This document shows, piece by piece, positions 7,155-54,632 of a stretch of DNA of 64,000 nt. The translations under genes were made by a program, and so were the position numbers. Below the pieces are notes generated by a model. That model did not search any database and was not told where the DNA came from. It worked only from the letters and a program-made list of their open reading frames with translations. Location of the stretch: NCBI RefSeq assembly GCF_056746865.1, contig NZ_CM163382.1. One strand, given 5' to 3'. How positions within the stretch are numbered: the stretch's first letter is position 1; each line of letters starts with the position of its first letter.

Positions 7155-7198
7155 GGTGTTTGGGTGAGTTAATGGGTGAATGTGATGAATGTGCGTGC

Positions 7199-7313
7199 TG
7201 ATGCCCTCACCCCGACCCTCTCCCACAGGGAGAGGGAGAAAACCAGCGCTGATTTTAACACCGTGCTCGATCGGTTCCCTCGCCCCTTTGGGGAGAGGGG
7301 TAGGGGGAGGGGA
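7199..7313. repeat. G/C-rich nested-palindrome repeat element, copy 1
   Basis: CCCTCACCCCGACCCTCTCCCACAGGGAGAGGG ... CCCCTTTGGGGAGAGGGGTAGGGGGAGGGG, with the same architecture and flanks (GTGCGnnCTGATG) as the copy at 14561..14685. Confidence 0.7.
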
Positions 7314-7332
7314 AAAGCGCGCACAGAGCGAC

Positions 7333-9955: not shown

Positions 9956-9970
9956 TGGCACGGCGATTGC
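9956..9970 (+). promoter_or_regulatory. Candidate sigma-54 (-24/-12) promoter for the lfgB-lfgL operon
   Basis: TGGCAC-ggcga-TTGC with exactly 10 nt between GG and GC, about 38 nt upstream of the lfgB ATG. Confidence 0.6.
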
Positions 9971-10345: not shown

Positions 10346-10777
10346 ATGTCATTTACTGATATCTATCAGATTTCCGGCTCGGCGATGACGGCGCAAACCA
10401 TTCGTCTGAATACCGTTGCCAGTAACCTGGCGAATGCCAATGCACCTGCCGGCAGCGAGGCGCAGGCGTATAAAGCGCGCAGCCCGGTGTTTGCGGCGGT
10501 GTATCACCACAGCTTGCTGGCGGGAACGCATCGTCATGCCATTGATGGTGCCAGCGTGCAGGTGCAGGACGTGCTGCAAACCGGCGGGGCGGTGAAACGC
10601 TATGAACCGCATTCGCCGCTGGCGGATGCTAACGGGGATGTCTGGTATCCCGACGTCAACGTGGTGGAACAGATGGCGGACATGATGTCGGCCTCGCGCG
10701 ATTTTGAAACCAACGTCGATGTGCTCAACAACGTGAAAAGTATGCAGCAAAGCCTGCTGAAACTGGGAGAAGCCTGA
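10346..10777 (+). CDS. lfgC: Flagellar proximal rod protein FlgC
   Basis: 143 aa with the SNLANANAP rod motif. The frame is intact. Confidence 0.85.
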   Translation: MSFTDIYQISGSAMTAQTIRLNTVASNLANANAPAGSEAQAYKARSPVFAAVYHHSLLAGTHRHAIDGASVQVQDVLQTGGAVKRYEPHSPLADANGDVWYPDVNVVEQMADMMSASRDFETNVDVLNNVKSMQQSLLKLGEA

Positions 10778-11490
10778 TGAATACCCTGGCGCTGAATGCG
10801 CAATCGCCGCAGCCGACCGCCACGGCGGAAAGCAACAACGTGGCAGCCAGCGACACGACAAGCAGCAGCGATAGCTCGCCCGTCGATACCTTCCTGACGC
10901 TGTTTGTCGCTGAGATCCAAAACCAGGACCCGACCGACCCGACTGACGCCACCGAATATATCGACCAGCTTTCTTCGATGGCGCAGGTGGCGATGATGGA
11001 AGAGATGAGCGTGCAGGCCAACACCAACGCGGTGCTGATGAGCAACATTCAGGTGATGGCGCTCGGCAACCTGGTGGGTGACGACATTATGGTGCAGACC
11101 ACCGCCTTGCAGGTGAGCGACCAGACCATTAATGGTCGCGCCACGCTTGACGACGCCTGTACCACCGCCGATCTCCACTTTACCGATGCCGCAGGCGATG
11201 ACTACACCGTCTCGCTGATCCCGCAGGGCAGTTCGTCCGTCGGGCCAGGCCAGGTCGATTTCTCGATTAATCCGGCGGATTACGGTATCCCGCCCGGTGA
11301 TTACGACGTCTCGGTGGTGACCAACACCGGGGAAGAAGAGGTGCCGATTGAAGTTTCCGGCGAAGTGGAAGATGTACGCATCCCGCTCGACGGCGGCTCT
11401 CCGGTGCTCAATGTTGCAGGCGTGGGCGAAGTGCCGTTCACCATGATTAGCCAGTTTGGCGTACCCGATGCCGACAGTGATGTGGCGTGA
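10777..11490 (+). CDS. lfgD: Flagellar hook capping/scaffold protein FlgD
   Basis: 237 aa, in the flgD position. Confidence 0.8.
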   Translation: MNTLALNAQSPQPTATAESNNVAASDTTSSSDSSPVDTFLTLFVAEIQNQDPTDPTDATEYIDQLSSMAQVAMMEEMSVQANTNAVLMSNIQVMALGNLVGDDIMVQTTALQVSDQTINGRATLDDACTTADLHFTDAAGDDYTVSLIPQGSSSVGPGQVDFSINPADYGIPPGDYDVSVVTNTGEEEVPIEVSGEVEDVRIPLDGGSPVLNVAGVGEVPFTMISQFGVPDADSDVA

Positions 11491-11504: not shown

Positions 11505-11592
11505 TTGCCTGATGCGCTTCGCTTATCAGGCCTACATGAAACTGCATGGTTTTGTAGGCCGGATAAGGCGTTCACGCCGCATCCGGCAAAAC
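11505..11592. repeat. REP/BIME palindromic units
   Basis: GCCTGATGCG...CTTATCAGGCCTAC and GTAGGCCGGATAAGGCGTTCACGCCGCATCCGGCA units in the flgD-flgE intergenic region. Confidence 0.85.
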
Positions 11593-11633
11593 AACGGGCA
11601 CGCTGTCAAAATTTGAATTAACAGGACGAAACA

Positions 11634-12836
11634 ATGAGTTATGAAATTGCCGCAACGGGGCTGAATGCCGTTAACGAACAGCTCGACGGGATCAGTAACA
11701 ACATCGCCAACGCCGGAACGGTAGGCTATAAGTCGATGACCACCCAGTTTTCAGCCATGTATGCCGGAAGTCAGGCGATGGGCGTCAGCGTGGCAGGCAC
11801 CGCGCAAAGCATTTCGCGCGGCGGTTCGCTGGTCTCCACCGGTAACGCGCTGGATCTGGCGATTAACAACGATGGCTTTTTTGTGACCTGCGACAGCGCG
11901 GGCAACATTTCTTATACCCGCGCCGGATCGTTTGAAACCGACAAAAACGGCTATATTGTCAACGCCTCAGGCGCTTATTTGCAGGGTTATCCGGTCGATG
12001 ACACTGGCACCCTGCAAACCGGTACGGTCACCGATATCCAGATCAAAACCGGCAATATCCCGGCGCAGGCCAGCAGCAGCCTGACCTTTACCGCTAACTT
12101 CGATGCCAGCGACGACGCTATCGACCGCACCACCGTACCATTCGACCCGACCAACAGCAGCTCGTACACCGACAGCTACACCACCACGGTGTATGACTCA
12201 TTGGGTAACGAACATTCGGTATGCCAGTACTTCACCAAAACCAGCGACAACACCTGGGAAGTGCAGTACACCTTCGACGGCCAGCAGCAGACCGGCGTTC
12301 CGGCGACGACATTAACCTTCGACCCGAATACCGGGAAGCTGACCTCGCTAACTACGCCGCAAACCATTGAGTTTCAGACCGACGCCGCCGCGCCCATCGA
12401 CTTAACCGTCGATTACTCCACCTGTACGCAATACGGCTCTGACTTCTCGGTCACCACCAACTCTGCCAACGGCTACGCTTCCGCGACTCAGAACGGTGTG
12501 CAGGTTGATGACGATGGCAAAGTTTACGCCACCTACAGCAACGGCGAGCGCATGTTGCAGGGCCAGGTGGTGCTGGCGACTTTCCCGAATGAAAACGGCC
12601 TGGAGGCAGTGAGCGGCACCGCGTGGGTACAAACCGGGGAATCCGGCACCCCGCTGATTGGCGTTCCAGGCTCCGGTACCTGCGGTACGCTCACGTCCGG
12701 CGTGCTCGAAAGCTCTAACGTCGATATAACCAGCGAGTTAGTCAACCTGATGACCGCCCAGCGTAACTATCAGGCCAACACCAAAGTTATCGCCACCAGC
12801 ACGCAGCTCGATGACGCGCTGTTCCAGGCGATGTAA
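11634..12836 (+). CDS. lfgE: Flagellar hook protein FlgE
   Basis: 400 aa with conserved rod/hook N-terminus (ISNNIANAGTVGYK) and C-terminus (TAQRNYQANTKVI). Confidence 0.9.
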   Translation: MSYEIAATGLNAVNEQLDGISNNIANAGTVGYKSMTTQFSAMYAGSQAMGVSVAGTAQSISRGGSLVSTGNALDLAINNDGFFVTCDSAGNISYTRAGSFETDKNGYIVNASGAYLQGYPVDDTGTLQTGTVTDIQIKTGNIPAQASSSLTFTANFDASDDAIDRTTVPFDPTNSSSYTDSYTTTVYDSLGNEHSVCQYFTKTSDNTWEVQYTFDGQQQTGVPATTLTFDPNTGKLTSLTTPQTIEFQTDAAAPIDLTVDYSTCTQYGSDFSVTTNSANGYASATQNGVQVDDDGKVYATYSNGERMLQGQVVLATFPNENGLEAVSGTAWVQTGESGTPLIGVPGSGTCGTLTSGVLESSNVDITSELVNLMTAQRNYQANTKVIATSTQLDDALFQAM

Positions 12837-13573
12837 TGGACCGTTTGATTTATACCGCCCTGAGCGGTGCTTCTCAGACCCTGTACGAGCAGCAGATCAG
12901 CGCCAACAACCTGGCGAACGTCAACACCAACGGTTTTCGCGCCGATATGGCAATGGCAACCAACGACAAGGTGAAAGGCGGCGGCTTCGACACGCGCTAT
13001 ATGGCGCAGGAAGGGGCCAGCGGCGTGAACGACAGCACAGGTGTTGCGGAGAAAACCGAACGCCCGCTGGACGTGGCGATTCAGGGCGCGGGTTACATTG
13101 CGGTGCAGGATAAAAACGGCAACGAAGTCTATACCCGCAACGGCAACATTCAGCAGGATGACCAGGGGCAACTGACCATCGACGGCAATCTGGTGCTGGG
13201 GGATAACGGCCCGATCATTCTGCCGCCGAACGCCATTGCTTCGTTTGGCAGCGACGGCACGCTGTCGGTGACGCCCGATGACGGCGACGTGACTGCAACC
13301 ATGGATATCGACCGCCTGAAGCTGGTGGATATTCCTGTCGCTAACCTGGCGAAAAATCCTGAAGGGATGCTGATAACTGCCGACGGCGTTCCGGCCCAGC
13401 GCGATGAAAATATCAAAGTCAGTGGCGGTTTTCTCGAAGGCAGCAACGTCTCGGCGGTGAGCGAGATGATGTCGTCCATCGCCATGAACCGCCAGTTTGA
13501 AGCGCAGATCAAGATGATGAAAACCGCCGAAGATATCAGCGACGCGGGCAACCGCTTATTGCGCGGCTCGTAA
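12836..13573 (+). CDS. lfgF: Flagellar proximal rod protein FlgF
   Basis: 245 aa with N-terminal ANNLANVNTNGFR. Confidence 0.85.
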   Translation: MDRLIYTALSGASQTLYEQQISANNLANVNTNGFRADMAMATNDKVKGGGFDTRYMAQEGASGVNDSTGVAEKTERPLDVAIQGAGYIAVQDKNGNEVYTRNGNIQQDDQGQLTIDGNLVLGDNGPIILPPNAIASFGSDGTLSVTPDDGDVTATMDIDRLKLVDIPVANLAKNPEGMLITADGVPAQRDENIKVSGGFLEGSNVSAVSEMMSSIAMNRQFEAQIKMMKTAEDISDAGNRLLRGS

Positions 13574-13579
13574 CCGCAC

Positions 13580-13720
<141 letters not shown>

Positions 13721-13751
13721 GCGGCCGAAAAACAACACGGAATTTACCACC

Positions 13752-14537
13752 ATGAACGCAGCACTATGGATCAGCAAAACCGGCCTCTCGGCGCAGGATG
13801 CTGAAATGAGCGCGATTGCCAACAACATCGCCAACGTTAACACCACCGGCTTCAAGCGTGACCGGGTGATGTTTCAGGATCTGTTCTACCAGACCCAGGA
13901 AGCGCCGGGCGCGATGCTCGATCAGAACAACATCATGCCGACCGGGCTGCAATTCGGTAGCGGCGTGCGCATTGTCGGCACCCAGAAAACCTTCACCGAA
14001 GGCAACGTCGAAACCACCGACAACGCCATGAATGTCGCCATTATGGGGCAGGGGTTTTTGCAGGTGCAAAAGGCCAACGGCGATATCGCCTATACCCGCG
14101 ACGGCAACTTGCAGGTGAACGCCGACGGCGTACTGACCAACTCGCAGGGCTTGCCGTTGCAGCCGGAAATCGACGTTCCGGCGGGGGCGACCAACGTCGC
14201 GTTTGGCGAGGACGGCACGGTGACGGCGATCTTACCCGGCGACAGCGATGTGACCGAGTTAGGGCAACTGACACTGGTGAACTTCGCCAACCCAGCGGGG
14301 CTTTCTGCCGAGGGCGACAACCTGTATCTGGAAACCGCCGCCAGCGGTCAGCCGACCGAAGGTGTGCCGGGCGAAGATGGGCTTGGCACCTTGCAGGACA
14401 ACGCGCTCGAAGGCTCGAACGTGGATATCGTCAACGAAATGGTGGCGATGATTACGGTGCAACGCGCGTACGAGATGAACGCCAAAATGGTGTCGGCAGC
14501 GGACGATATGTTGCAGTACATCAGCCAGACGCTGTAA
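13752..14537 (+). CDS. lfgG: Flagellar distal rod protein FlgG
   Basis: The ATG at 13752 (MNAALWISKTGLSAQDA) gives ~261 aa. The upstream in-frame extension in the ORF track runs through the REP elements. Confidence 0.9.
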   Translation: MNAALWISKTGLSAQDAEMSAIANNIANVNTTGFKRDRVMFQDLFYQTQEAPGAMLDQNNIMPTGLQFGSGVRIVGTQKTFTEGNVETTDNAMNVAIMGQGFLQVQKANGDIAYTRDGNLQVNADGVLTNSQGLPLQPEIDVPAGATNVAFGEDGTVTAILPGDSDVTELGQLTLVNFANPAGLSAEGDNLYLETAASGQPTEGVPGEDGLGTLQDNALEGSNVDIVNEMVAMITVQRAYEMNAKMVSAADDMLQYISQTL

Positions 14538-14560
14538 GGGAGTGGGGGCAACGTGCGGTC

Positions 14561-14685
14561 TGATGCCCTCACCCCGGCCCTCTCCCACAGGGAGAGGGGG
14601 AAAAGCGGTGCACGATGTAACAACGCGCACAGGTCAGTCCCCTCTCCCTTGAGGGAGAGGGTTAGGGTGAGGGGGAACAAACAGC
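14561..14685. repeat. G/C-rich nested-palindrome repeat element, copy 2
   Basis: CCCTCACCCCGGCCCTCTCCCACAGGGAGAGGG ... CCCCTCTCCCTTGAGGGAGAGGGTTAGGGTGAGGG. Two inverted arms, each itself a hairpin, closely similar to the element at 7199..7313. Confidence 0.7.
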
Positions 14686-14743
14686 TCCGCACCCACTAAA
14701 CAACCGGCCACCCCCGTGGCCTGCAACACTAAACAGGCAGAAC

Positions 14744-15409
14744 GTGAAAAATTATCTCTGGCTGGTGGCGCTGCTTCCACTCCTTAGCGGGTGTGAATCA
14801 CAGGCCATTCTGGTCAAAAAAGACGACGCATACTTTGCGCCACCCAAAACCGAAGCGCCGCCTCCGGCAGACGGGCGTGCCGGGGGCGTGTTTGAAACTG
14901 GCTACAACTGGTCGCTAACCGCCGACCGGCGGGCTTACCGCGTGGGCGATATCCTGACGGTGATCCTCGAAGAATCTACCCAGTCGAGCAAACAGGCGAA
15001 AACCAACTTCGGCAAAAACAACACCGTCGATATCGGCGCGCCGACCATTTTTGGTCACACCAAAGATAAGCTTTCCGGCTCTATCGACGCCAACCGCGAC
15101 TTTGACGGCAGCGCCACTTCCCAGCAGCAGAACAGCCTGCGCGGGGAGATCACCGTTTCCGTCCATGCGGTGCAGCCCAACGGCATTCTGGAAATTCGCG
15201 GCGAAAAATGGCTCACCCTCAACCAGGGTGATGAGTACATCCGCTTAAGCGGCCTGGTGCGCGCCGACGATATCCAGAACGACAACTCGGTTTCCTCCCA
15301 GCGGATCGCCGACGCCCGCATTTCCTATGCCGGACGCGGCGCGTTAAGCGACGCCAACGCCGCAGGCTGGCTGACGCGGTTGTTTAACCATCCTCTGTTC
15401 CCGATTTAA
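14744..15409 (+). CDS. lfgH: Flagellar L-ring lipoprotein FlgH
   Basis: 221 aa with a lipoprotein signal and lipobox (LLPLLSGC). Confidence 0.9.
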
Positions 15410-16524
15410 TGCCGGAGAGTGCAATGCAAAACTGGATAAAGGCCGCAGCGATCGCTGTAAGCCTGGCGCTGCCCGGCGTGGCGCTGGCGCAATCGCTGGA
15501 GTCGCTGGTCAACGTACAGGGCGTGCGTGAAAACCAACTGGTCGGCTACAGCCTGGTGGTCGGCCTCGACGGCACGGGTGATAAAAACCAGGTCAAATTC
15601 ACCAACCAGACCATCACCAATATGCTGCGCCAGTTTGGCGTGCAGCTGCCGAATAAAATCGACCCGAAGGTGAAAAACGTCGCGGCGGTGGCGGTGAGCG
15701 CCACGCTGCCGCCGATGTACTCGCGCGGGCAGACCATTGACGTCACCGTTTCGTCGATTGGCGATGCCAAAAGTATTCGCGGCGGCACTTTATTGCTTAC
15801 GCAGCTGCACGGCGCAGATGGCGAAGTGTATGCCCTGGCGCAGGGAAGTGTGGTGGTGGGCGGGATGAATGCCACCGGGGCCAGCGGTTCCAGCGTGACG
15901 GTTAACACACCGACCGCCGGGTTAATTCCCAACGGCGCGACGGTGGAGCGTGAGATCCCCAGCGATTTTCAGATGGGCGACACCATCACCCTCAACCTGA
16001 AACGCCCGTCGTTTAAAGATGCCAACAATATTGCGGCGGCGATCAACGCTTCGTTTGGCGGCATCGCCACCGCGCAGAGTTCCACCAACGTTACCGTGCG
16101 CGCGCCCACCAGCCCCGGCGCGCGGGTGGCGTTTATGTCGCAACTGGATGATGTACAGGTGCAGGCAGAGAAAATCCGCGCCCGCGTGGTGTTTAACTCG
16201 CGCACTGGCACGGTGGTAATGGGCGATGGCGTTGCGCTGCACGCGGCGGCGGTGTCGCACGGCAGTTTGACCGTCTCGATTAACGAAACCAGCAACGTCA
16301 GCCAGCCGAATGCCTTTGCGGGCGGGCGCACGGCGGTAACGCCGCAGAGCAATATCGCGGTGAATCACGCCCGTCCGGGGGTGGTGAGTTTGCCGGAGTC
16401 GAGCAGCCTGAAAACGTTGGTTAATGCGTTGAACAGTTTAGGCGCGACGCCGGATGACATTATGTCGATTTTGCAGGCGCTGCATGAAGCGGGCGCGCTG
16501 GATGCCGACCTGGAGGTGATCTGA
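15409..16524 (+). CDS. lfgI: Flagellar P-ring protein FlgI
   Basis: 371 aa with a signal peptide ([17 protein letters not shown]). Confidence 0.9.
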
Positions 16525-16823
16525 TGAAAGTTAACGGCAGCGGCGGGATTGATGGCAGCGACGCATTAATGGGGCCGAAGGTTCAGGCCAATGATATCAA
16601 GCAGGCTGCGGAACAGTTTGAGGCGATTTTTTTACGCAACATGTTGAAAGAGATGCGTAAAACCAACGAGTTGTTCGATTCGAAAGATAACCCGTTTAAC
16701 AGCGATTCGGTGCGCATGATGCAGGGGTTTTATGACGATGAGTTGTGTAACACCCTGGCGCAGCAGCACGGGATTGGGATTGCGGCGATGATTGTGAAGC
16801 AGTTGTCGCCGAAGCATAAATGA
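16524..16823 (+). CDS. lfgJ: FlgJ-like rod-assembly protein, N-terminal rod-binding domain only
   Basis: 99 aa in the flgJ position between flgI and flgK. It is too short to carry the C-terminal muramidase domain of enterobacterial FlgJ. Confidence 0.65.
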   Translation: MKVNGSGGIDGSDALMGPKVQANDIKQAAEQFEAIFLRNMLKEMRKTNELFDSKDNPFNSDSVRMMQGFYDDELCNTLAQQHGIGIAAMIVKQLSPKHK

Positions 16824-16837
16824 GGCTCCGACGTTCG

Positions 16838-16925
16838 GTGCCTGATGCGACGCTGGCGCGTCTTATCAGGCCTACGAGTCGCCCGTATGTAGGCCGGATA
16901 AGGCGTTCACGCCGCATCCGGCACC
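16838..16925. repeat. REP/BIME palindromic units
   Basis: GCCTGATGCGACGC...CTTATCAGGCCTAC and GTAGGCCGGATAAGGCGTTCACGCCGCATCCGGCA in the flgJ-flgK intergenic region. Confidence 0.85.
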
Positions 16926-16998
16926 CGGTTTACGGAACTTAAGAATCCCCAACCTAACGCCGCTTTTAACCGGCACGATTTACCGGTAAGGATCCAAC

Positions 16999-18375
16999 AT
17001 GGACATGATTAACATCGGCTACAGCGGCGCATCAACCGCGCAGGTGGAGCTGAACGTCACGGCGCAAAACACCGCCAACACCATGACCACGGGCTACACC
17101 CGTCAGGTGGCGGAGATCAGCACCATCGGTGCCAGCGGCGGTTCGCCGAACAGCGCCGGTAACGGCGTGCAGGTCGATAGCATTCGCCGCGTCTCCAACC
17201 AGTATCAGGTGAATCAGGTGTGGTATGCCGCCAGCGATTACGGCTATTACAGCACCCAGCAAGGGTATCTCACGCAACTGGAAGCGGTACTGAGCGACGA
17301 TAACAGCAGCCTGAGCGGCGGCTTCGATAACTTTTTCGCCGCCCTTAACGAAGCGACCACCAGCCCCGATGATTCCGCCCTGCGCGAGCAGGTGATCAGC
17401 GAAGCCGGGGCGCTGTCGCTGCGTATCGACAACACGCTGGATTACATCGACTCGCAAAGCACGGAAATCATCAGCCAGCAGCAGGCGATGGTGTCGCAAA
17501 TTAATACGCTCACCAGCGGTATCGCCAGCTATAACCAGCAAATCGCTCAGGCCGAAGCCAACGGCGATAACGCCTCCGCGCTGTACGACGCCCGCGACCA
17601 GATGGTGGAAGAACTCAGCGGGATGATGGATGTGCAGGTCAATATCGACGACCAGGGCAACTACAACGTTACCCTGAAAAACGGTCAACCGCTGGTGAGC
17701 GGGCAGCAAAGCTCGACCATCGCGCTGGAAACCAACGCCGACGGCACGCCGACCATGTCGCTGACCTTCGCCGGAACCACCTCGACGATGACCACCGACA
17801 CTGGAGGTTCATTAGGCGCACTGTTTGATTATCAAAACGACGTGCTGACGCCGCTGACCGACACCATCAACAGCATGGCGTCGCAGTTTGCCGATGCGGT
17901 CAACAATCAACTGGCGCAGGGCTACGATCTCAACGGCAACCCCGGCGAGCCGCTGTTTATTTATGACGCCAGCAACGCCGATGGCCCGCTGACCGTCAAC
18001 CCGGATATCACCGCCGATGAGCTGGCGTTTTCCAGTTCACCGGACGAAAGCGGTAACAGCGACAACTTACAGGCGCTGATCAATATCTCCACCGAACCGC
18101 TGGAGATAGCCAACCTCGGCAGCGTGACGGTCGGGCAGGCGTGCTCGTCAATCATCAGCAATATCGGCATTTACAGCCAGCAAAACCAGACGGAAGTCGA
18201 TGCCGCGTCCAATGTCTATTCCGCAGCGCAAAACCAGCAGAGCAGCGTCAGCGGCGTCAGCATGGACGAAGAGGCGGTTAACCTGATCACCTATCAACAA
18301 ATTTATGAAGCCAATCTGAAAGTCATTTCCGCCGGGGCCGAGATTTTCGATTCGGTGCTGGAAATGTGCAGCTAA
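16999..18375 (+). CDS. lfgK: Flagellar hook-associated protein 1 FlgK
   Basis: 458 aa with the N-terminal rod/hook-family motif and a conserved C-terminal helix. Confidence 0.85.
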   Translation: MDMINIGYSGASTAQVELNVTAQNTANTMTTGYTRQVAEISTIGASGGSPNSAGNGVQVDSIRRVSNQYQVNQVWYAASDYGYYSTQQGYLTQLEAVLSDDNSSLSGGFDNFFAALNEATTSPDDSALREQVISEAGALSLRIDNTLDYIDSQSTEIISQQQAMVSQINTLTSGIASYNQQIAQAEANGDNASALYDARDQMVEELSGMMDVQVNIDDQGNYNVTLKNGQPLVSGQQSSTIALETNADGTPTMSLTFAGTTSTMTTDTGGSLGALFDYQNDVLTPLTDTINSMASQFADAVNNQLAQGYDLNGNPGEPLFIYDASNADGPLTVNPDITADELAFSSSPDESGNSDNLQALINISTEPLEIANLGSVTVGQACSSIISNIGIYSQQNQTEVDAASNVYSAAQNQQSSVSGVSMDEEAVNLITYQQIYEANLKVISAGAEIFDSVLEMCS

Positions 18376-18389
18376 GCGGGAGCGCGAAA

Positions 18390-19319
18390 ATGCGAGTAAC
18401 CACCCAACAAACCTACGTCTCGATGACGCAAAGTTTTAATAATCTCTCCGGCGATCTGGCGCATGTGGTCGAGCAGATGGCAACCGGCAAGGAAATTTTG
18501 CAGCCGTCGGATGACCCGATCGCCGCCACGCGCATCACCCAGTTGAACCGCCAACAGTCGGCGATTGAGCAGTATCAGAGCAATATCGACTCCGCGTCGG
18601 CGGGGTTAAGTCAGCAGGAATCAATCCTTGATGGCGTCAACAACAGCCTGCTGGCGGTGCGCGACGACCTGCTGGAAGCGGCGAATGGCACCAATACCGC
18701 CGATTCGCTCGCAAGTCTCGGGCAGGATATTGAGTCGCTCACCGAATCAATGGTCGTGGCGCTGAACTATCAGGACGAAGACGGGCATTACGTGTTTGGC
18801 GGTACCATCAACGATCAGCCGCCGATTGTGGCGGTGGACGATGACGGCGATGGCGTGACCGACAGCTACAGCTATCAGGGCAACAGCGACCACCGCCAGA
18901 CCACGGTGTCGAACGGCGTGGAAGTGGATACCAACGTGGCGGCGAGCGATTTCTTCGGCAGCAATTTAGATGTGCTCAACACACTGAATACCCTGTCGCA
19001 GGAGTTGCAAGACCCAAACGTTGACCCGGCCGATCCGCAGGTGCAGAGCGATATTCAGAACGCCGTTGATGTGGTGGACACCGCCTCGGATAACCTCAAC
19101 GCCTCGATTGCGTCGCTCGGCGAGACGCAGAACACCATGTCGATGTTGAGCGATGCGCAGACCGATATCTCTACCTCTAATGATGAGCTGATTGGTTCAT
19201 TACAGGATCTCGATTACGGCCCGGCGTCGATCACCTTTACCGGACTGGAAGTAGCAATGGAAGCTACCCTCAAGACTTACTCGAAAGTGAGTGAGTTGAA
19301 TTTGTTCAGCGTTCTCTAA
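18390..19319 (+). CDS. lfgL: Flagellar hook-associated protein 3 FlgL
   Basis: The ATG at 18390 (MRVTTQQTY) follows the flgK stop and gives ~309 aa with a flagellin-like N-terminus. Confidence 0.8.
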   Translation: MRVTTQQTYVSMTQSFNNLSGDLAHVVEQMATGKEILQPSDDPIAATRITQLNRQQSAIEQYQSNIDSASAGLSQQESILDGVNNSLLAVRDDLLEAANGTNTADSLASLGQDIESLTESMVVALNYQDEDGHYVFGGTINDQPPIVAVDDDGDGVTDSYSYQGNSDHRQTTVSNGVEVDTNVAASDFFGSNLDVLNTLNTLSQELQDPNVDPADPQVQSDIQNAVDVVDTASDNLNASIASLGETQNTMSMLSDAQTDISTSNDELIGSLQDLDYGPASITFTGLEVAMEATLKTYSKVSELNLFSVL

Positions 19320-19335
19320 CTCTTTCAGGAACAGT

Positions 19336-20313
19336 ATGCAGGTCGGACTTACATCTTCGTCACTCGCCACCGGCGGCGCGCATAGCGCTGCGGTATCGTC
19401 GTCAACCGTTGCGCCCACTCAGGCGGTGCGGCAAAAACTCCCGGCGACGGCGAGTGAATATCCGGCCTCGCCGCTGATTACCACTCGCCCGCAGCGTTAC
19501 AGCGTGCAGCTTAACGACCAGCTCACCACGTTGCAGCAGGCGGATCACTATCTCGGGCAACTGGAGCAGCAGTTGCTCGATTATCGTCACAGCCAGCGCA
19601 AAGGCGGGCAGGCGCAGAGTTCGGCGCTGATGCAGATGCTGGACAAACGCACCGCGCTTTCCGGCGGTGCGGTGGACCGCCAGTTGCAGCCAGTGTTGCA
19701 GGGGGAAGCGCGGGTGACTTTTCACTCGCCGGATCTGGCGAATCTGGTACACAATCCCACGCCGGGAACGCGCATGTTCAGCGTCTCTGACGGGCGGCAG
19801 ACTCAGCTTTCGGCGGTGATGCTGTCTGAGGATGACAGCGCTGGGCAGTACCAGACGCGGCTGACCAACGCCCTGCGCCGCGTGGGCGTGCAGATGCATC
19901 AAAACGCCGATGGTATAAGTTTCTCCACCACTGAAAAACAGTGGCCCAACATTGAAAGCACCCTAAGCGTGCGCACCGATGGTGATAAATCAGCGTTTAT
20001 GCCACTAAAAACCTTTGCCGAACCGTCGCAGGCGGACCGCTTAGTGCAAAGCCTGCAACAGGGCGGAGCGGGGATTTCTCAGACGTTAGAAAGCATTAAT
20101 CAGCAGCGTGTGCAGATGGCGGTACAGCAGGAAAAGGCGCGGCAGTTGATCGACGGCATGTCGCGCTTCCCGCAAACGGAAAGCGCCGTGCAGGCGTCGG
20201 AAAATCTCGGCGGCGTGCTGGATAGCGCCAATCATAACTATCAGGTTTTATTGCAGGCGGTGAACGGTCAGGCGCGAATTTCCAGCCAGACGGTGAGGAG
20301 TTTATTGGGTTAG
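19336..20313 (+). CDS. lafW: Flag-2-specific protein of unknown function (position of lafW)
   Basis: 325 aa with a Ser/Ala/Thr-rich N-terminus, located between flgL and the regulator/flagellin genes. Function is not evident from sequence. Confidence 0.5.
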   Translation: MQVGLTSSSLATGGAHSAAVSSSTVAPTQAVRQKLPATASEYPASPLITTRPQRYSVQLNDQLTTLQQADHYLGQLEQQLLDYRHSQRKGGQAQSSALMQMLDKRTALSGGAVDRQLQPVLQGEARVTFHSPDLANLVHNPTPGTRMFSVSDGRQTQLSAVMLSEDDSAGQYQTRLTNALRRVGVQMHQNADGISFSTTEKQWPNIESTLSVRTDGDKSAFMPLKTFAEPSQADRLVQSLQQGGAGISQTLESINQQRVQMAVQQEKARQLIDGMSRFPQTESAVQASENLGGVLDSANHNYQVLLQAVNGQARISSQTVRSLLG

Positions 20314-20334
20314 GGTTATTGTCATTGTTGCTTT

Positions 20335-20378
20335 TATAGCTATTAAGCTATAGTTTATCTATAGCATAAAAGCTATGA
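20335..20378. promoter_or_regulatory. Two inverted repeats (TATAGC...GCTATA) upstream of the toxin gene; candidate toxin-antitoxin operator
   Basis: TATAGCTATTAAGCTATA and CTATAGCATAAAAGCTATG lie immediately upstream of a GAGGGA ribosome-binding site and the ATG at 20386. Confidence 0.5.
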
Positions 20379-20385
20379 GGGACCG

Positions 20386-20730
20386 ATGATGTGGGACGTC
20401 GAGACAACGGAGACTTTCGACAACTGGTTTGATGCCCAGACTGTTGCGCTGAAAGAAGATTTACTTGCTGCAATGCTGATTCTTGCTGAGTATGGCCCAC
20501 AGTTGGGCAGACCCTTTGCGGATACGGTTAATGATTCACAGTTTTCAAATATGAAAGAATTACGCGTCCAACATCAGGGAAACCCGGTACGTGCTTTTTT
20601 TGCTTTCGATCCTGCGCGCCGTGGCATTGTATTATGTGCGGGTGATAAAACGGGGTTAAATGAGAAAAAGTTTTATCGCGATATGATCAAGCTCGCTGAT
20701 TCTGAATACCGTAAGCATCTGAAAAAGTAA
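20386..20730 (+). CDS. Type II toxin, RelE/ParE superfamily (HigB-like 'addiction module killer' family)
   Basis: 114 aa with a C-terminal GIVLCAGDK...KKFYRDMIKLAD region reminiscent of HigB-like killer proteins. It lies 9 nt upstream of a small HTH gene, and the toxin-first order is typical of higBA. Confidence 0.7.
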   Translation: MMWDVETTETFDNWFDAQTVALKEDLLAAMLILAEYGPQLGRPFADTVNDSQFSNMKELRVQHQGNPVRAFFAFDPARRGIVLCAGDKTGLNEKKFYRDMIKLADSEYRKHLKK

Positions 20731-20739
20731 GGAACGATA

Positions 20740-21039
20740 ATGGCTACTCTAAAAGAACTGATGGCAAAGCAAAGCCCTGAAAGCCAGGTGCGTATTGCGG
20801 CAAAAGTTGAGGAAATGCGCCAGACCATCGCCTTGCATCAGCTGAGAGAAGAACTCAATATTTCGCAAACGGAAATGGCGGCAGCGATGGGCATTAAGCA
20901 ACCGACTCTTGCAAAAATGGAGCAGGCAGATAACGATCCTCGGTTGTCTACGCTAAAACGCTATGTTGCGGCTTTAGGTGGGGAATTGAGTATCGACGTT
21001 AAACTGCCGAATGGTAAGAGAATTGCATTTCAGATTTAA
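20740..21039 (+). CDS. Type II antitoxin, XRE/HigA-family helix-turn-helix protein
   Basis: 99 aa with an HTH motif (ISQTEMAAAMGIKQPTLAKME), tightly coupled to the upstream toxin gene. Confidence 0.75.
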   Translation: MATLKELMAKQSPESQVRIAAKVEEMRQTIALHQLREELNISQTEMAAAMGIKQPTLAKMEQADNDPRLSTLKRYVAALGGELSIDVKLPNGKRIAFQI

Positions 21040-21096
21040 TTTTGGGGTGCATTTTATGAACCGGATTAGATAAAACGGTATCTAATCCGGTAAACA

Positions 21097-21990
21097 TCAG
21101 CATTTCTGCACAGTATTTAACAACTTCTCTAAATTCTGATACATCGCGCTATTAATATCGCTATTCTGCCAGCTATCCACATTAAAAGTTAATTGCCAGC
21201 TACCGTTGCACTGGTTGCGCAGAACAATATCACTCTCCAGTCGGTTACGAACATATTTATAATAGGTTGTCATTGTCATATTATGCGCTGACAATAAATT
21301 ATCGAGTTTGTCTTTTCCTGGTGCGAGGGTTTGTGACAGTAACGGTACGGAATTATTTTCCTTTCCAGAACTAAGATGAAATATTTTTATTCTTGGACTG
21401 TTAATTGACTCTTTTACCAGTTGCGGGGCGTCAGGTGTACTTTTCAAGTGTGAATACCCCACGGTTGAGCCAACCAATATAACAGCTGCGGCCAACGCTA
21501 ACCCCATCAGTCCTTTATGTTTTTTTCTAACAGGCACATACGGTGTTGTCGAAGATATCTCTTCTGGGGCTGTATCCTGTATCTGGTCGGTAATAATCAG
21601 CGCTTCTGCAGGCGATGACTCCGGCAAAGACACATACTCTTTATTGCATAAGTAACCTTTCTTCGGAATTGTTTTAATAATGTTCTGTTGTTTGCCATCA
21701 TCGTCGATAGCAACGCGCAACGCATGGATCGCCGTCGGCAGGCTGTTTCCGCCGACAATACGGTTCTTCCATACTTCGGCACATAAATAAGATCGCGATA
21801 AAACCACATCGGCATTTTTTGCTAATGTTTCCAGCAAAATAAAATGGTATTCGCCGAGACGACGTGTTTCACCCGTTTCGCAATGTATTAAGGCATTAAG
21901 CGACGGGTCCATCCGCCAGTTGTTGATAATAATACTCATAGTTGAGTTTACCTTAGCAAGGGATAAATGTTTCCTGATAGTGCTTTGCAT
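21097..21990 (-). CDS. lafZ: Membrane-anchored ToxR/CadC-like transcriptional regulator (position of lafZ)
   Basis: 297 aa with an N-terminal winged-helix OmpR/CadC-type DNA-binding region, a single TM helix (GLMGLALAAAVILVGSTVGY) and a periplasmic C-terminal domain. The gene is AT-rich relative to its flanks. Confidence 0.6.
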   Translation of the reverse strand: MQSTIRKHLSLAKVNSTMSIIINNWRMDPSLNALIHCETGETRRLGEYHFILLETLAKNADVVLSRSYLCAEVWKNRIVGGNSLPTAIHALRVAIDDDGKQQNIIKTIPKKGYLCNKEYVSLPESSPAEALIITDQIQDTAPEEISSTTPYVPVRKKHKGLMGLALAAAVILVGSTVGYSHLKSTPDAPQLVKESINSPRIKIFHLSSGKENNSVPLLSQTLAPGKDKLDNLLSAHNMTMTTYYKYVRNRLESDIVLRNQCNGSWQLTFNVDSWQNSDINSAMYQNLEKLLNTVQKC

Positions 21991-22424
21991 AAAGCACAGT
22001 CTTATACGTCCCTGAGAAGATGATTTTTCTGCGTGATAATTAATATTTTATGGTGATAAGATTATTCTTAATCACTATATAGCGTGGAAATGTAACGAAA
22101 TGACAGGACAGGTACAATAGCCAAATGTGTACTATTTGCAACGCAATGTAAATTTTGGCATCAGTACATTGAGAACAAAACGCGATAATTGATGACAATC
22201 TTAACTATATCAAGCGTTTGATAAAGACATATTTTGATACCTGGCCATGTGGCAGATATTGCTAATAATCTTTTTATCTGAATTTAAACTCTGCTTTTTT
22301 TAGCTAAAAGTGGCATCGGATAATACGTGGCGAAAAAATTTTAACGGCGATTTTAAGTTTGCTCCTGAGGTGTCGTTTTTACAGGGTATCGAAACGAAAA
22401 CGATTAATCCCAAGGAGCAGTATC

Positions 22425-23339
22425 ATGTTATCTATTAACACCAATAACGCCTCAATGGCCGCCGTTAATGCAATCAGCAAAAGCAGCTCTTCTCTGTCTA
22501 CATCTATGGAACGCCTGGCGACAGGTAACCGGATTAACTCTTCTGCCGATGACGCCGCAGGCAAACAAATTGCTAACCGTCTGACAGCACAGTCCAGCGG
22601 TATGGGTGTTGCGCTGAGCAACATCAATGATGCCACCGCGATGCTGCAAACCGCTGACAGCATGTTCGACGAAATGTCTGACGTGCTGGGTCGTATGAAA
22701 GACCTGTCAACTCAGGCAGCGAACGGCACCTACAGCGACGACGACCTGCAGGCGATGCAGGACGAATACGACGAACTGGGCCAGCAGATGTCTGACATGC
22801 TGCAAAACACCACTTACGGCGGCACCAACCTGTTCGGTGTTTCCGGTACCAGCAACACCGGTACTGACGGTCTGTTCCAGAGCGCGGTAACTTTCCAGGT
22901 GGGCGCGGAATCTTCCGACACCATGACCGTGAATATTTCAAGCCAGCTGAATACCCTGGTGACGGATCTTTCTGCAATCAGCAACTCCTTTAGTGCGGAT
23001 CAGGCTGACACCACTGGCACCGCAGGCGTTTCTGGCGGTACTGAGCTGACTGCGTCTGGCTCGGCTAACCAGATGATCACCAGCATCTCTACCGCGATGG
23101 ATGACGTGTCTCAGATCCAGTCCAAGCTGGGTGCCTCTATCAACCGTCTGAACGACACTGCCAACAACCTGACCAGTATGCAAGACAACACCGAAGTCGC
23201 TATCGGTAACATCATGGATACCGACTACGCGACGGAAGCGTCCAATATGACCAAACAGCAAGTGCTGATGCAGACTGGCATCACCATGCTGAAACAGTCC
23301 AACAGCATGTCCAGCATGGTTTCCAGCCTGCTGCAGTAA
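22425..23339 (+). CDS. lafA: Lateral flagellin
   Basis: The ATG at 22425 follows an AAGGAG ribosome-binding site. It has the flagellin N-terminus (MLSINTNNASMAAVNA...RLATGNRINSSADDAAG) and C-terminus (MTKQQVLMQTGITMLKQSNSM), about 304 aa. Confidence 0.9.
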   Translation: MLSINTNNASMAAVNAISKSSSSLSTSMERLATGNRINSSADDAAGKQIANRLTAQSSGMGVALSNINDATAMLQTADSMFDEMSDVLGRMKDLSTQAANGTYSDDDLQAMQDEYDELGQQMSDMLQNTTYGGTNLFGVSGTSNTGTDGLFQSAVTFQVGAESSDTMTVNISSQLNTLVTDLSAISNSFSADQADTTGTAGVSGGTELTASGSANQMITSISTAMDDVSQIQSKLGASINRLNDTANNLTSMQDNTEVAIGNIMDTDYATEASNMTKQQVLMQTGITMLKQSNSMSSMVSSLLQ

Positions 23340-23344
23340 TGGCG

Positions 23345-23380
23345 GACTTGCCGATGCGGCGTAAACGCCTTATCCGGCCA
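23345..23380. repeat. REP unit downstream of lafA
   Basis: GCCGATGCGGCGTAAACGCCTTATCCGGCC. Confidence 0.7.
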
Positions 23381-23385
23381 CGAAC

Positions 23386-23414
23386 AACACCGCCTGCGGG
23401 CGGTGTTGTGCTTT
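23386..23414 (+). terminator. Rho-independent terminator candidate after lafA
   Basis: Hairpin AACACCGCCTGCGGGCGGTGTT followed by a T-rich run (GTGCTTT). Confidence 0.6.
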
Positions 23415-23496
23415 CAGCGGCAGGCTTTTTTCCGCCAGAACGGAAACGTCATTTCCGCCTGTTTTTCAATCTATTGATTATTCACATAAAAAATAT

Positions 23497-23511
23497 TGGC
23501 ACGCCTTTTGC
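23497..23511 (+). promoter_or_regulatory. Candidate sigma-54 (-24/-12) promoter for lafB through lafU
   Basis: TGGCAC-gcctt-TTGC with canonical spacing, about 33 nt upstream of the lafB ATG. Confidence 0.6.
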
Positions 23512-38783: not shown

Positions 38784-38821
38784 GTGAAATGTGCCGGATG
38801 CATCACATCCGGCAATATCCA

Positions 38822-51903: not shown

Positions 51904-53162
<1,259 letters not shown>

Positions 53163-54384: not shown

Positions 54385-54397
54385 TGCATTGAATAAT

Positions 54398-54426
54398 AAA
54401 AATGGCGCAAATGCAGCGCCATTTTT
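54398..54426. terminator. Bidirectional rho-independent terminator candidate between yagU and ykgJ
   Basis: AAAAATGGCGC-AAATGCA-GCGCCATTTTT: an 11-bp perfect stem flanked by A-runs and T-runs. Confidence 0.7.
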
Positions 54427-54632
54427 ATAGGTTAAAAACATTGCTTTTTACTTTCTGAAGCAGATAGCCAGTGAGTACATCGCGCTACTTCAGGATGCTG
54501 TAGATCCGGAGAACACTATAGAGGAAGAGGCATTGTTGCTGGCAGATGGAAGAAGTTTCGGGTTTTGTTATCCCTGAAAAACGAAGCCCCGCGGTTATAG
54601 CTGGCGGGGCAGTGCAATTAATTATTGCATAT

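Follow-up and report, generated by a model that had tools for sequence, protein, structure and literature searches.

Repetitive extragenic palindromic (REP) sequences between the genes of malEFG and of hisJQMP are classical mRNA stabilizers, shown experimentally to shield the cistron before them from 3'-5' degradation. Here we analyze REP units that likewise lie between co-transcribed genes, those of the Flag-2 (lateral flagella) cluster of Escherichia coli, where by comparison the effect is a prediction and the elements themselves are polymorphic. They were found in a 64-kb stretch of DNA (hereafter the window) that belongs to the chromosome of E. coli 118UI (NZ_CP032515.1; position 1 of the window is position 292884 of this record, by megablast at 100% identity). 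The cluster is of the type of strain 042 and occupies positions 1-29659, followed by dinB-yafNOP, pepD, gpt, crl, phoE, and proBA. No gene of its lfgD-to-lafA part is annotated as a pseudogene in 118UI.

The REP family of E. coli, with its Y, Z1, and Z2 types, is the closest described system. There are 584 REPs in the 4.6 Mb of K-12 (PMC3333891), and the copy number of the bacterial interspersed mosaic elements (BIMEs) that they form at a given locus is reported to differ between strains (PMC3333891, citing Bachellier 1997). The Flag-2 units match this family in their sequence, GTAG/CTAC tags, stem mismatch, alternating orientation, extragenic position after stop codons, and variation in copy number; we found no essential difference, and the copy next to lafA has decayed. 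They also share the repeat family with REPtron or REPIN-RAYT systems, their Z+Y pairs fold in a REPIN-like manner, and rayT (encoding a REP-associated tyrosine transposase) adjoins Flag-2. Yet, the four Flag-2 sites are not part of the REPtron, we observed no mobilization event, and differences between close strains trace to recombination rather than new insertion.

Our results suggest that these REPs are passengers that colonized the spacers of Flag-2 once the cluster had settled in Escherichia, and that their effects on the RNA are tolerated by-products. We regard this explanation as likely. What our data show directly is which repeats these are, where they lie, that they are restricted to a lineage, and that they are polymorphic. 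A link between Flag-2 and REPs was not found in the literature that we searched, De Maayer 2020 being silent on palindromes and intergenic regions, and within that literature the specific sites seem previously undescribed. The repeats themselves are a well-known kind of genomic passenger, neither a new regulator nor a new principle, and as regards regulation they bring nothing beyond textbook REP biology.

REP units in four spacers of Flag-2

A pattern search of the window revealed eight REP units in four spacers: lfgD-lfgE, lfgF-lfgG, lfgJ-lfgK, and the region 3' of lafA (Table 1). These are precisely the places, after flgD, flgF, flgJ, and lafA, where an initial annotation of this DNA had reported canonical E. 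coli REPs. All eight units are outside annotated coding sequences, and no canonical Y or Z unit was found in the window beyond these eight, which share a stretch of 12 kb. Apart from them, just one short palindrome, located between crl and phoE (38793-38813), resembles a REP. Shuffled sequence gave no match to the REP patterns in 100 shuffles. Seven units match the Y or Z patterns exactly. The unit behind lafA has three mismatches, has lost one G (GCCGATG), and folds poorly, without a clean REP hairpin. It is also the exception to the GTAG/CTAC tag found at the foot of the hairpin in the seven others, since its CTAC is now CCAC, which is consistent with decay. In the Y units (GCCGGATAAGGCG / CGCCGCATCCGGC) one can read a two-base mismatch in the stem, with AA facing GC; such a mismatch is needed for the binding of TnpA-REP (PMC3333891).

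The units are arranged as BIMEs, with REPs and inverted REPs (iREPs) separated by short linkers: Z-Y at 11507-11587 (with a linker of 18 nt), Y-Z-Y at 13583-13716, and Z-Y at 16840-16922. The lafA unit is solitary. The first stem begins shortly after a stop codon at all four sites, at a distance of 16 nt from that of lfgD (11488-11490), 13 nt from that of lfgF (13571-13573), 16 nt from that of lfgJ (16821-16823), and about 10 nt from that of lafA (23337-23339).

Because the patterns used in the search came from the window's own sequence, the assignment to a family has to rest on independent evidence. The Rfam model naRNA4 (RF02564, derived from REP325) matches 13586-13662 with 78.4 bits, against a gathering threshold of 59.5. 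By BLAST, 5425 of the 5426 E. coli genomes contain matches to the REP-bearing segments, with a median of at least 30-39 matching places per genome. Moreover, Y and Z units identical in kind flank rayT in the genome of 118UI, and the flgF-flgG spacer of K-12 holds a Y unit like those of the Flag-2 sites. These four observations confirm that the units belong to the ordinary dispersed REP (palindromic unit) family of E. coli, in its Y and Z types arranged as BIMEs.

Table 1. REP units and accompanying elements of the Flag-2 cluster of 118UI, with positions in the window.
Feature	Position	Strand	Remark
BoxC-like composite, second copy	7195-7320		between two minus-strand Flag-2 genes (glycosyltransferase and hypothetical)
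Sigma-54 type -24/-12 consensus, TGGCAC-N5-TTGC	9956-9970	+	upstream of lfgB; pattern match
lfgD (flgD-like)	10777-11490
Z-type REP, short variant	11507-11535	-	iREP on the plus strand, CTAC at 11532-11535; left half of the lfgD-lfgE BIME
GTAG and Y-type REP	11554-11587	+	right half of the lfgD-lfgE BIME
GTAG and Y-type REP	13583-13616	+	first of the lfgF-lfgG triple
Z-type REP, long variant	13631-13665	-	iREP on the plus strand, CTAC at 13662-13665; middle of the lfgF-lfgG triple
GTAG and Y-type REP	13683-13716	+	third of the lfgF-lfgG triple
BoxC-like dispersed palindrome, CCCTCACCC..CCCTCTCCC / GGGAGAGGG..GGGTGAGGG	14560-14680		lfgG-lfgH spacer
Z-type REP, long variant	16840-16875	-	iREP, CTAC at 16872-16875; lfgJ-lfgK BIME
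GTAG and Y-type REP	16889-16922	+	right half of the lfgJ-lfgK BIME
Promoter-like motif, TTAAGAA-N13-CGCCGCTTTTAA	16939-16970	+	precedes lfgK; shared by every genus compared
lafA	22425-23339
Solitary Y-type iREP, decayed	23350-23379	-	3' of the lafA stop codon
Native lafA terminator hairpin, CAACACCGCC-N4-GGCGGTGTTG, then TGCTTTC	23385-23415	+
Sigma-54 type consensus	23497-23511	+	upstream of fliD; marks where the operon following the lafA unit and terminator starts

Two of the occupied spacers also contain elements of their own. The promoter-like motif upstream of lfgK is probably a promoter of sigma-28 type, and the terminator hairpin of lafA is conserved in Citrobacter, Phytobacter, and Pseudocitrobacter. 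By their conservation, both qualify as ancestral spacer sequence, and in Escherichia the REPs of the lfgJ-lfgK and lafA spacers are placed after the stop codon of the preceding gene and ahead of these elements. A pattern match for the sigma-54 type consensus found the sites upstream of lfgB and fliD and no other in the region, in particular none between the lfgB site and lfgK. Since no further site of this type precedes lfgK, the BIMEs of lfgD-lfgE and lfgF-lfgG are predicted to be internal to an operon. The initial annotation had extended this location to all four sites, which is less apt for the other two: the lfgJ-lfgK BIME is at the end of that transcript, just before the lfgK motif, and the lafA unit is in a 3' untranslated region.

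Lineage restriction and polymorphism of the repeats

We searched for related clusters with a scan for LfgK in species-representative genomes, located five spacers by tblastn, and annotated them. In E. whittamii and two further Escherichia species, Y and Z REPs are present at the same junctions, the lfgJ-lfgK spacer of E. whittamii being empty. The colonization by REPs thus either preceded or ran through the separation of several species of Escherichia. In contrast, no Y or Z REP was found in the Flag-2 loci, of about 21 kb each, of eight Citrobacter, Phytobacter, Leminorella, Enterobacter, UBA7338, and Mangrovibacter, nor in a partial Citrobacter locus of 12.7 kb. The spacers of these loci are compact, with 22-39 nt for lfgD-lfgE, 17-33 nt for lfgF-lfgG, 11-102 nt for lfgG-lfgH, 66-100 nt for lfgJ-lfgK, and about 200 nt for lafA-fliD. 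Citrobacter has its own short palindrome of GCCGGAT type after lfgG, and C. amalonaticus also has one after lafA. It appears that each host added its own repeats to the spacers of Flag-2.

These observations bear on the history of the cluster. The Flag-2 part of the window has a G+C content of 55.3%, against 51.2% for the remainder, in agreement with the deviation of +4.8% described for Escherichia Flag-2, for which an origin by horizontal transfer from loci like those of Citrobacter has been proposed (PMC6993521). Since the clusters examined outside Escherichia lack these REPs and have compact spacers, and since the G+C content is about four points higher than that of the flank, the REPs date a colonization that followed the arrival of the cluster. 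The initial annotation took REPs as marks of long-resident chromosomal DNA, a premise that holds in this data set, where plasmid records account for 233 of the 206,136 REP-matching places (about 0.1%). It went on to propose an ancestral origin in this lineage. A long residence of Flag-2 in Escherichia is indeed a fair inference, but in view of the REP-free, compact spacers of other genera and of the offset in G+C content, the REPs do not establish any deeper ancestry. Flag-2 probably came into Escherichia at an early stage and has stayed there, which reconciles the views of the cluster as ancestral in E. coli and as horizontally acquired. The REPs can then serve as a clean, datable, and host-lineage-specific marker of its history.

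The two Pseudocitrobacter loci call for caution in the use of this marker. In P. faecalis and P. vendiensis (loci L029 and L030), the Flag-2 proteins are 95-100% identical to those of E. coli, with an identical MotA, and trees of the flanks nest the Pseudocitrobacter clusters inside the diversity of E. coli. Their REPs are of the E. coli type, with up to six at lfgD-lfgE. A search with the exact MotA for a native Pseudocitrobacter flank returned only contigs with an E. coli-type neighborhood (dinB-yafNOP ... crl-phoE). Flag-2 has evidently moved between Escherichia and Pseudocitrobacter in a recent transfer, with its REPs aboard. Hence, REPs can hitch-hike, and by themselves are no proof of residence in the genome that carries them.

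Within E. coli, the same sites are very polymorphic. The lfgE-lfgF genes, which we used to define Flag-2-positive genomes, were found in 1276 of 5426 complete genomes. We annotated five spacers in 118UI and in 15 further fetched strains, including the archetype 042. In these 16 strains the lfgD-lfgE spacer has 22-271 nt and zero, one, two, or three to four REPs (it is empty, with 23 nt, in 042), and the lfgF-lfgG spacer has 26, 78, or 178 nt with zero, one, or three REPs, respectively. The lfgJ-lfgK spacer (175-420 nt) mostly holds a Z+Y pair, sometimes with more units, and has a BoxC-like element instead in HCP5S3_I2 and E700025. The lafA-fliD spacer (204-527 nt) has one to four REPs. Across all the Flag-2 loci compared, sites have between zero and eight REPs.

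Alleles in the population of about 1276 Flag-2-positive genomes were counted with junction-specific queries of 60 nt (E <= 1e-8). Counts based on BLAST coverage were dropped, because split pieces were merged into one place and alleles with a single REP passed the 80% coverage. At lfgD-lfgE, 802 genomes have a Z-type junction and 246 an empty one. At lfgF-lfgG, 1158 have a REP junction and 114 an empty one, and the REP junction of lfgJ-lfgK is present in 1228. The junction in which a Y unit comes first after lafA is found in 646-728 genomes, the rest having other arrangements of REPs, to judge by the sampled strains. Occupancy is about 63-96% per site. The triple at lfgF-lfgG is a minority allele: a query spanning it retrieved at most 141 genomes at 80% coverage, some single-REP alleles included, and 74 genomes matched at 99% identity or more. 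A lack of REPs at these positions in all other strains would have pointed to a recent local insertion, as the initial annotation had noted; instead, most Flag-2-positive genomes are occupied there, and so are other Escherichia species.

Several processes seem to have produced this diversity. The sequences of 118UI and 042 (locus L069) differ by 5 substitutions over 13.4-24.7 kb but diverge by 4-5% over 8-13.4 kb, with a sharp recombination boundary near 13.4 kb. The presence of the lfgD-lfgE BIME in 118UI and its absence in 042 fall within the divergent segment. We therefore see in this difference an old allele imported by recombination, and a recent insertion at lfgD-lfgE in 118UI relative to 042 is ruled out. 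Nor are the empty alleles simple excisions of the filled ones. In the former, the coding sequence joins the spacer at the stop codon itself, which differs between the two states (TAA vs TGA in lfgD, TGA vs TAA in lfgF), and the empty spacers show several differences from the flanks of the filled ones and a likeness to the compact spacers of Citrobacter. Some arrays have their consecutive Y units spaced at exactly 118 nt. This period recurs at three different sites (lafA-fliD in strain A3, lfgJ-lfgK in Escherichia sp. MOD1-EC7003, and lfgD-lfgE in Pseudocitrobacter vendiensis) and fits a tandem amplification of a Y+Z module, which reaches eight REPs at one site in MOD1-EC7003. The long variant of Z, found in the amplified arrays, would fit what is expected of BIME-2.

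Put together, these data suggest a scenario. REPs, as non-autonomous elements associated with RayT/TnpA-REP, probably colonized the few real spacers of the lfgB-L operon and the 3' untranslated region of lafA once Flag-2 was established in the Escherichia lineage. Every spacer so occupied would then have turned into a typical BIME hot spot, with gains and losses of units and with tandem amplification of Y+Z modules of 118 nt. Recombination would shuffle the resulting alleles, and the BoxC-like family would now and then take over a site.

Predicted RNA-level effects and competing explanations

The spacers with BIMEs are predicted to be strongly structured. Folded whole, they have minimum free energies of -48.5, -76.3, and -54.3 kcal/mol (z = -4.3, -5.3, and -3.9), and in the predicted folds Z often pairs with Y into one long hairpin. 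The initial annotation had suggested that the repeats act as mRNA stabilizers or as terminators. The second role must be abandoned as far as intrinsic terminators are concerned, since the T-tract is absent after every REP: the sequence directly 3' of the units is AAAACAAC, AGCTATG, AACCGCG, or ACCCGG, and a terminator scan made no plus-strand terminator-like call at any REP site. The repeats do resemble intrinsic terminators in being G+C-rich hairpins at 3' ends, but the actual terminator of lafA is the native hairpin listed in Table 1. A role in mRNA stabilization is plausible in view of general REP biology. The REPs would be co-transcribed with the operon, and their hairpins, 10-16 nt past the stop codons, may block 3'-5' exonucleases and thereby favor the upstream segments lfgBCD, lfgEF, and lfgB-J. 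By analogy, they could shield mRNA 3' ends or stall ribosomes; translation is down-regulated by REPs that follow a stop codon at a distance below 16 nt (Liang et al., as summarized in PMC12306157). Such effects on the RNA would most likely be by-products that the cell tolerates, rather than a control that is conserved and selected.

One may ask if the hairpins are nevertheless selected as operon-internal regulators that adjust the expression of rod, hook, and junction genes relative to one another, through stabilization of the upstream mRNA or attenuation of read-through. The strength of the predicted hairpins in the REP-bearing spacers, the start of all four first stems 10-16 nt past a stop codon, and the occupancy of lfgF-lfgG and lfgJ-lfgK in 91-96% of the Flag-2-positive genomes are in agreement with this idea. 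It is also favored by the presence of some hairpin after lfgG in Citrobacter, Leminorella, and Enterobacter, and by the Z-like and Y BIME at flgF-flgG of the unrelated Flag-1 flg operon of K-12. However, the variation in the number of REPs (zero to eight), with empty alleles in 9-19% of the genomes, is not what one expects of a regulator, an unrelated BoxC-like element is able to stand in for a BIME, none of the non-Escherichia Flag-2 clusters that we examined has these REPs, and the missing T-tract excludes an intrinsic terminator. Furthermore, many Flag-2 clusters have frameshifted structural genes. Frameshifts in flgF, flgD, and flgC and an internal stop in flgF are found among loci L008, L009, L011, L012, and L069, and the same set includes an IS1 in a regulator and a frameshifted glycosyltransferase, which suggests a weak or intermittent selection on the system. 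Because sites may be empty, have from one to eight units, bear an unrelated palindrome, or accompany frameshifted structural genes, a conserved, selected role of the REP sites is unlikely, and we give the regulatory explanation a low probability.

The unusual density of the repeats might also be explained by the vicinity of a source of REP mobility. In 118UI, rayT is upstream of the window (locus L016 8863-9360, i.e., NZ_CP032515.1 281746-282243), 1.7 kb from lfhA and about 22 kb from the lfgD-lfgE site, with Z and Y units on its flanks; an ISEc31 copy and flanking BIMEs separate it from lfhA. This position agrees with the published one, as the TnpA-REP gene invariably has yafL on one side and fhiA, the first gene of Flag-2, on the other, and the enzyme cleaves and recombines BIMEs in vitro (PMC3333891). 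If TnpA-REP events favored nearby DNA, this REPtron at the edge of the cluster could account for the eight REPs in 11.9 kb, where about 1.5 are expected from the density in K-12, although units that cluster in BIMEs are not independent in such a comparison. The distribution of REPs speaks against a local spread. The sites show no decay with the distance from rayT: the roughly 20 kb between this gene and the first site have a single BIME, in the divergent lfiM-lafK region outside the window (L016 17458-17544), and the 40 kb downstream of the cluster have essentially no REPs. Genomes with and without tnpA-REP have similar numbers of REPs, and the enzyme must act in trans (PMC3333891). The availability of spacers is a simpler account, as most other pairs of Flag-2 genes overlap or are just 2-22 nt apart, and we regard local spread as quite improbable.

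Even less credit can be given to a role at the level of the DNA, in which the BIMEs would be sites for DNA gyrase, IHF, or HU/naRNA that organize supercoiling or nucleoid contacts in a long and highly transcribed operon. BIMEs have been reported to bind gyrase and IHF (PMC2267715, PMC3333891), and the naRNA4 match at lfgF-lfgG is above the gathering score. But that model was built on a REP element, so that any Y-Z BIME will match it, the linkers here (13-21 nt) include no identified IHF-type linker, with no search made for the IHF motif, and the polymorphism of the sites weighs on this role as it does on the regulatory one. In a BIME-1 (RIP/RIB), by comparison, one Y and one z1 unit are joined by a long conserved linker, L, with an IHF site. 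What speaks for a DNA-level role would thus be the general reputation of the family and the Rfam match.

Four observations sit uneasily with REPs as passengers whose RNA effects are by-products. The flgF-flgG junction of Flag-1 in E. coli also has a BIME, which may reflect selection for structure at rod-gene junctions. In K-12 this spacer (L068 5559-5729) has 171 nt, with a degenerate Z-like iREP, a linker of 36 nt, and a canonical Y REP; this form is found in 3467 of 5426 genomes, and the others are filled differently. We tried the C. amalonaticus locus L053 as a Flag-1-type outgroup for this BIME, but this locus represents a third, distant system whose spacer is about 20 nt long, and it is uninformative. 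The second observation is that nearly every genus has a hairpin of some kind after lfgG, again with possible selection for structure. Also, two of the four distances between stop codon and stem are 16 nt, just beyond the published limit for ribosome stalling. Finally, neighbor-joining trees of 1-kb flanks scatter the empty alleles within E. coli and do not place them basally, whereas the basal Escherichia lineages are occupied. The independent BIMEs at flgF-flgG of Flag-1 and Flag-2, the lfgG hairpins, and the occupancy above 90% at lfgF-lfgG and lfgJ-lfgK keep alive a bolder proposal, that hairpins of REPs or BIMEs at rod-gene junctions were repeatedly recruited under selection and set the ratios of flagellar subunits. 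We consider it a long shot. If it were true, the alleles with zero, one, and three units would amount to naturally occurring variants in the expression of a cryptic motility system. Whatever the answer, these 0/1/3-copy alleles are a handy natural series for experiments on how REPs affect the expression of an operon.

BoxC-like palindromes and variable cargo of the cluster

A second family of palindromes, not mentioned in the initial annotation, occurs in the cluster. The lfgG-lfgH spacer (14538-14743, 206 nt) contains a dispersed element that folds with -82.5 kcal/mol and of which E. coli genomes have a median of 11 places, and a composite copy is present at 7195-7320 (Table 1). Judging from the sequence and the copy number, the family is probably BoxC. 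Both are G+C-rich dispersed palindromes, and the unit size is about right. The BoxC repeats of E. coli have 56 bp and about 32 copies (PMC2267715). In many other strains, the lfgG-lfgH spacer has a REP-like unit (TGTCGGATGCGACGC..GCGTCTTATCCGACCTAC) in place of the BoxC-like element. The latter is also present in the lfgJ-lfgK spacer of loci L004, L014, L029, and L030, and in some strains replaces the BIME there.

Other differences between strains concern genes. A pair encoding a toxin of the RelE/ParE family and a helix-turn-helix antitoxin (20389-21039) is located between the gene downstream of lfgL and the divergent regulator. Of the E. coli Flag-2 loci fetched, those of 118UI, 042, and E700025 have this pair and the 13 others lack it, so that it is a strain-variable cargo insertion. 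Downstream of the region of the thrW tRNA, the window has Rfam matches to isrC (150 bits, 51973-52095) and IS009 (192 bits, 54390-54590), which are unrelated to the REPs. The flgM-flgA spacer, of only 80 nt in 118UI, harbors a type II restriction endonuclease and a cytosine methyltransferase in four strains (loci L004, L005, L013, and L014).

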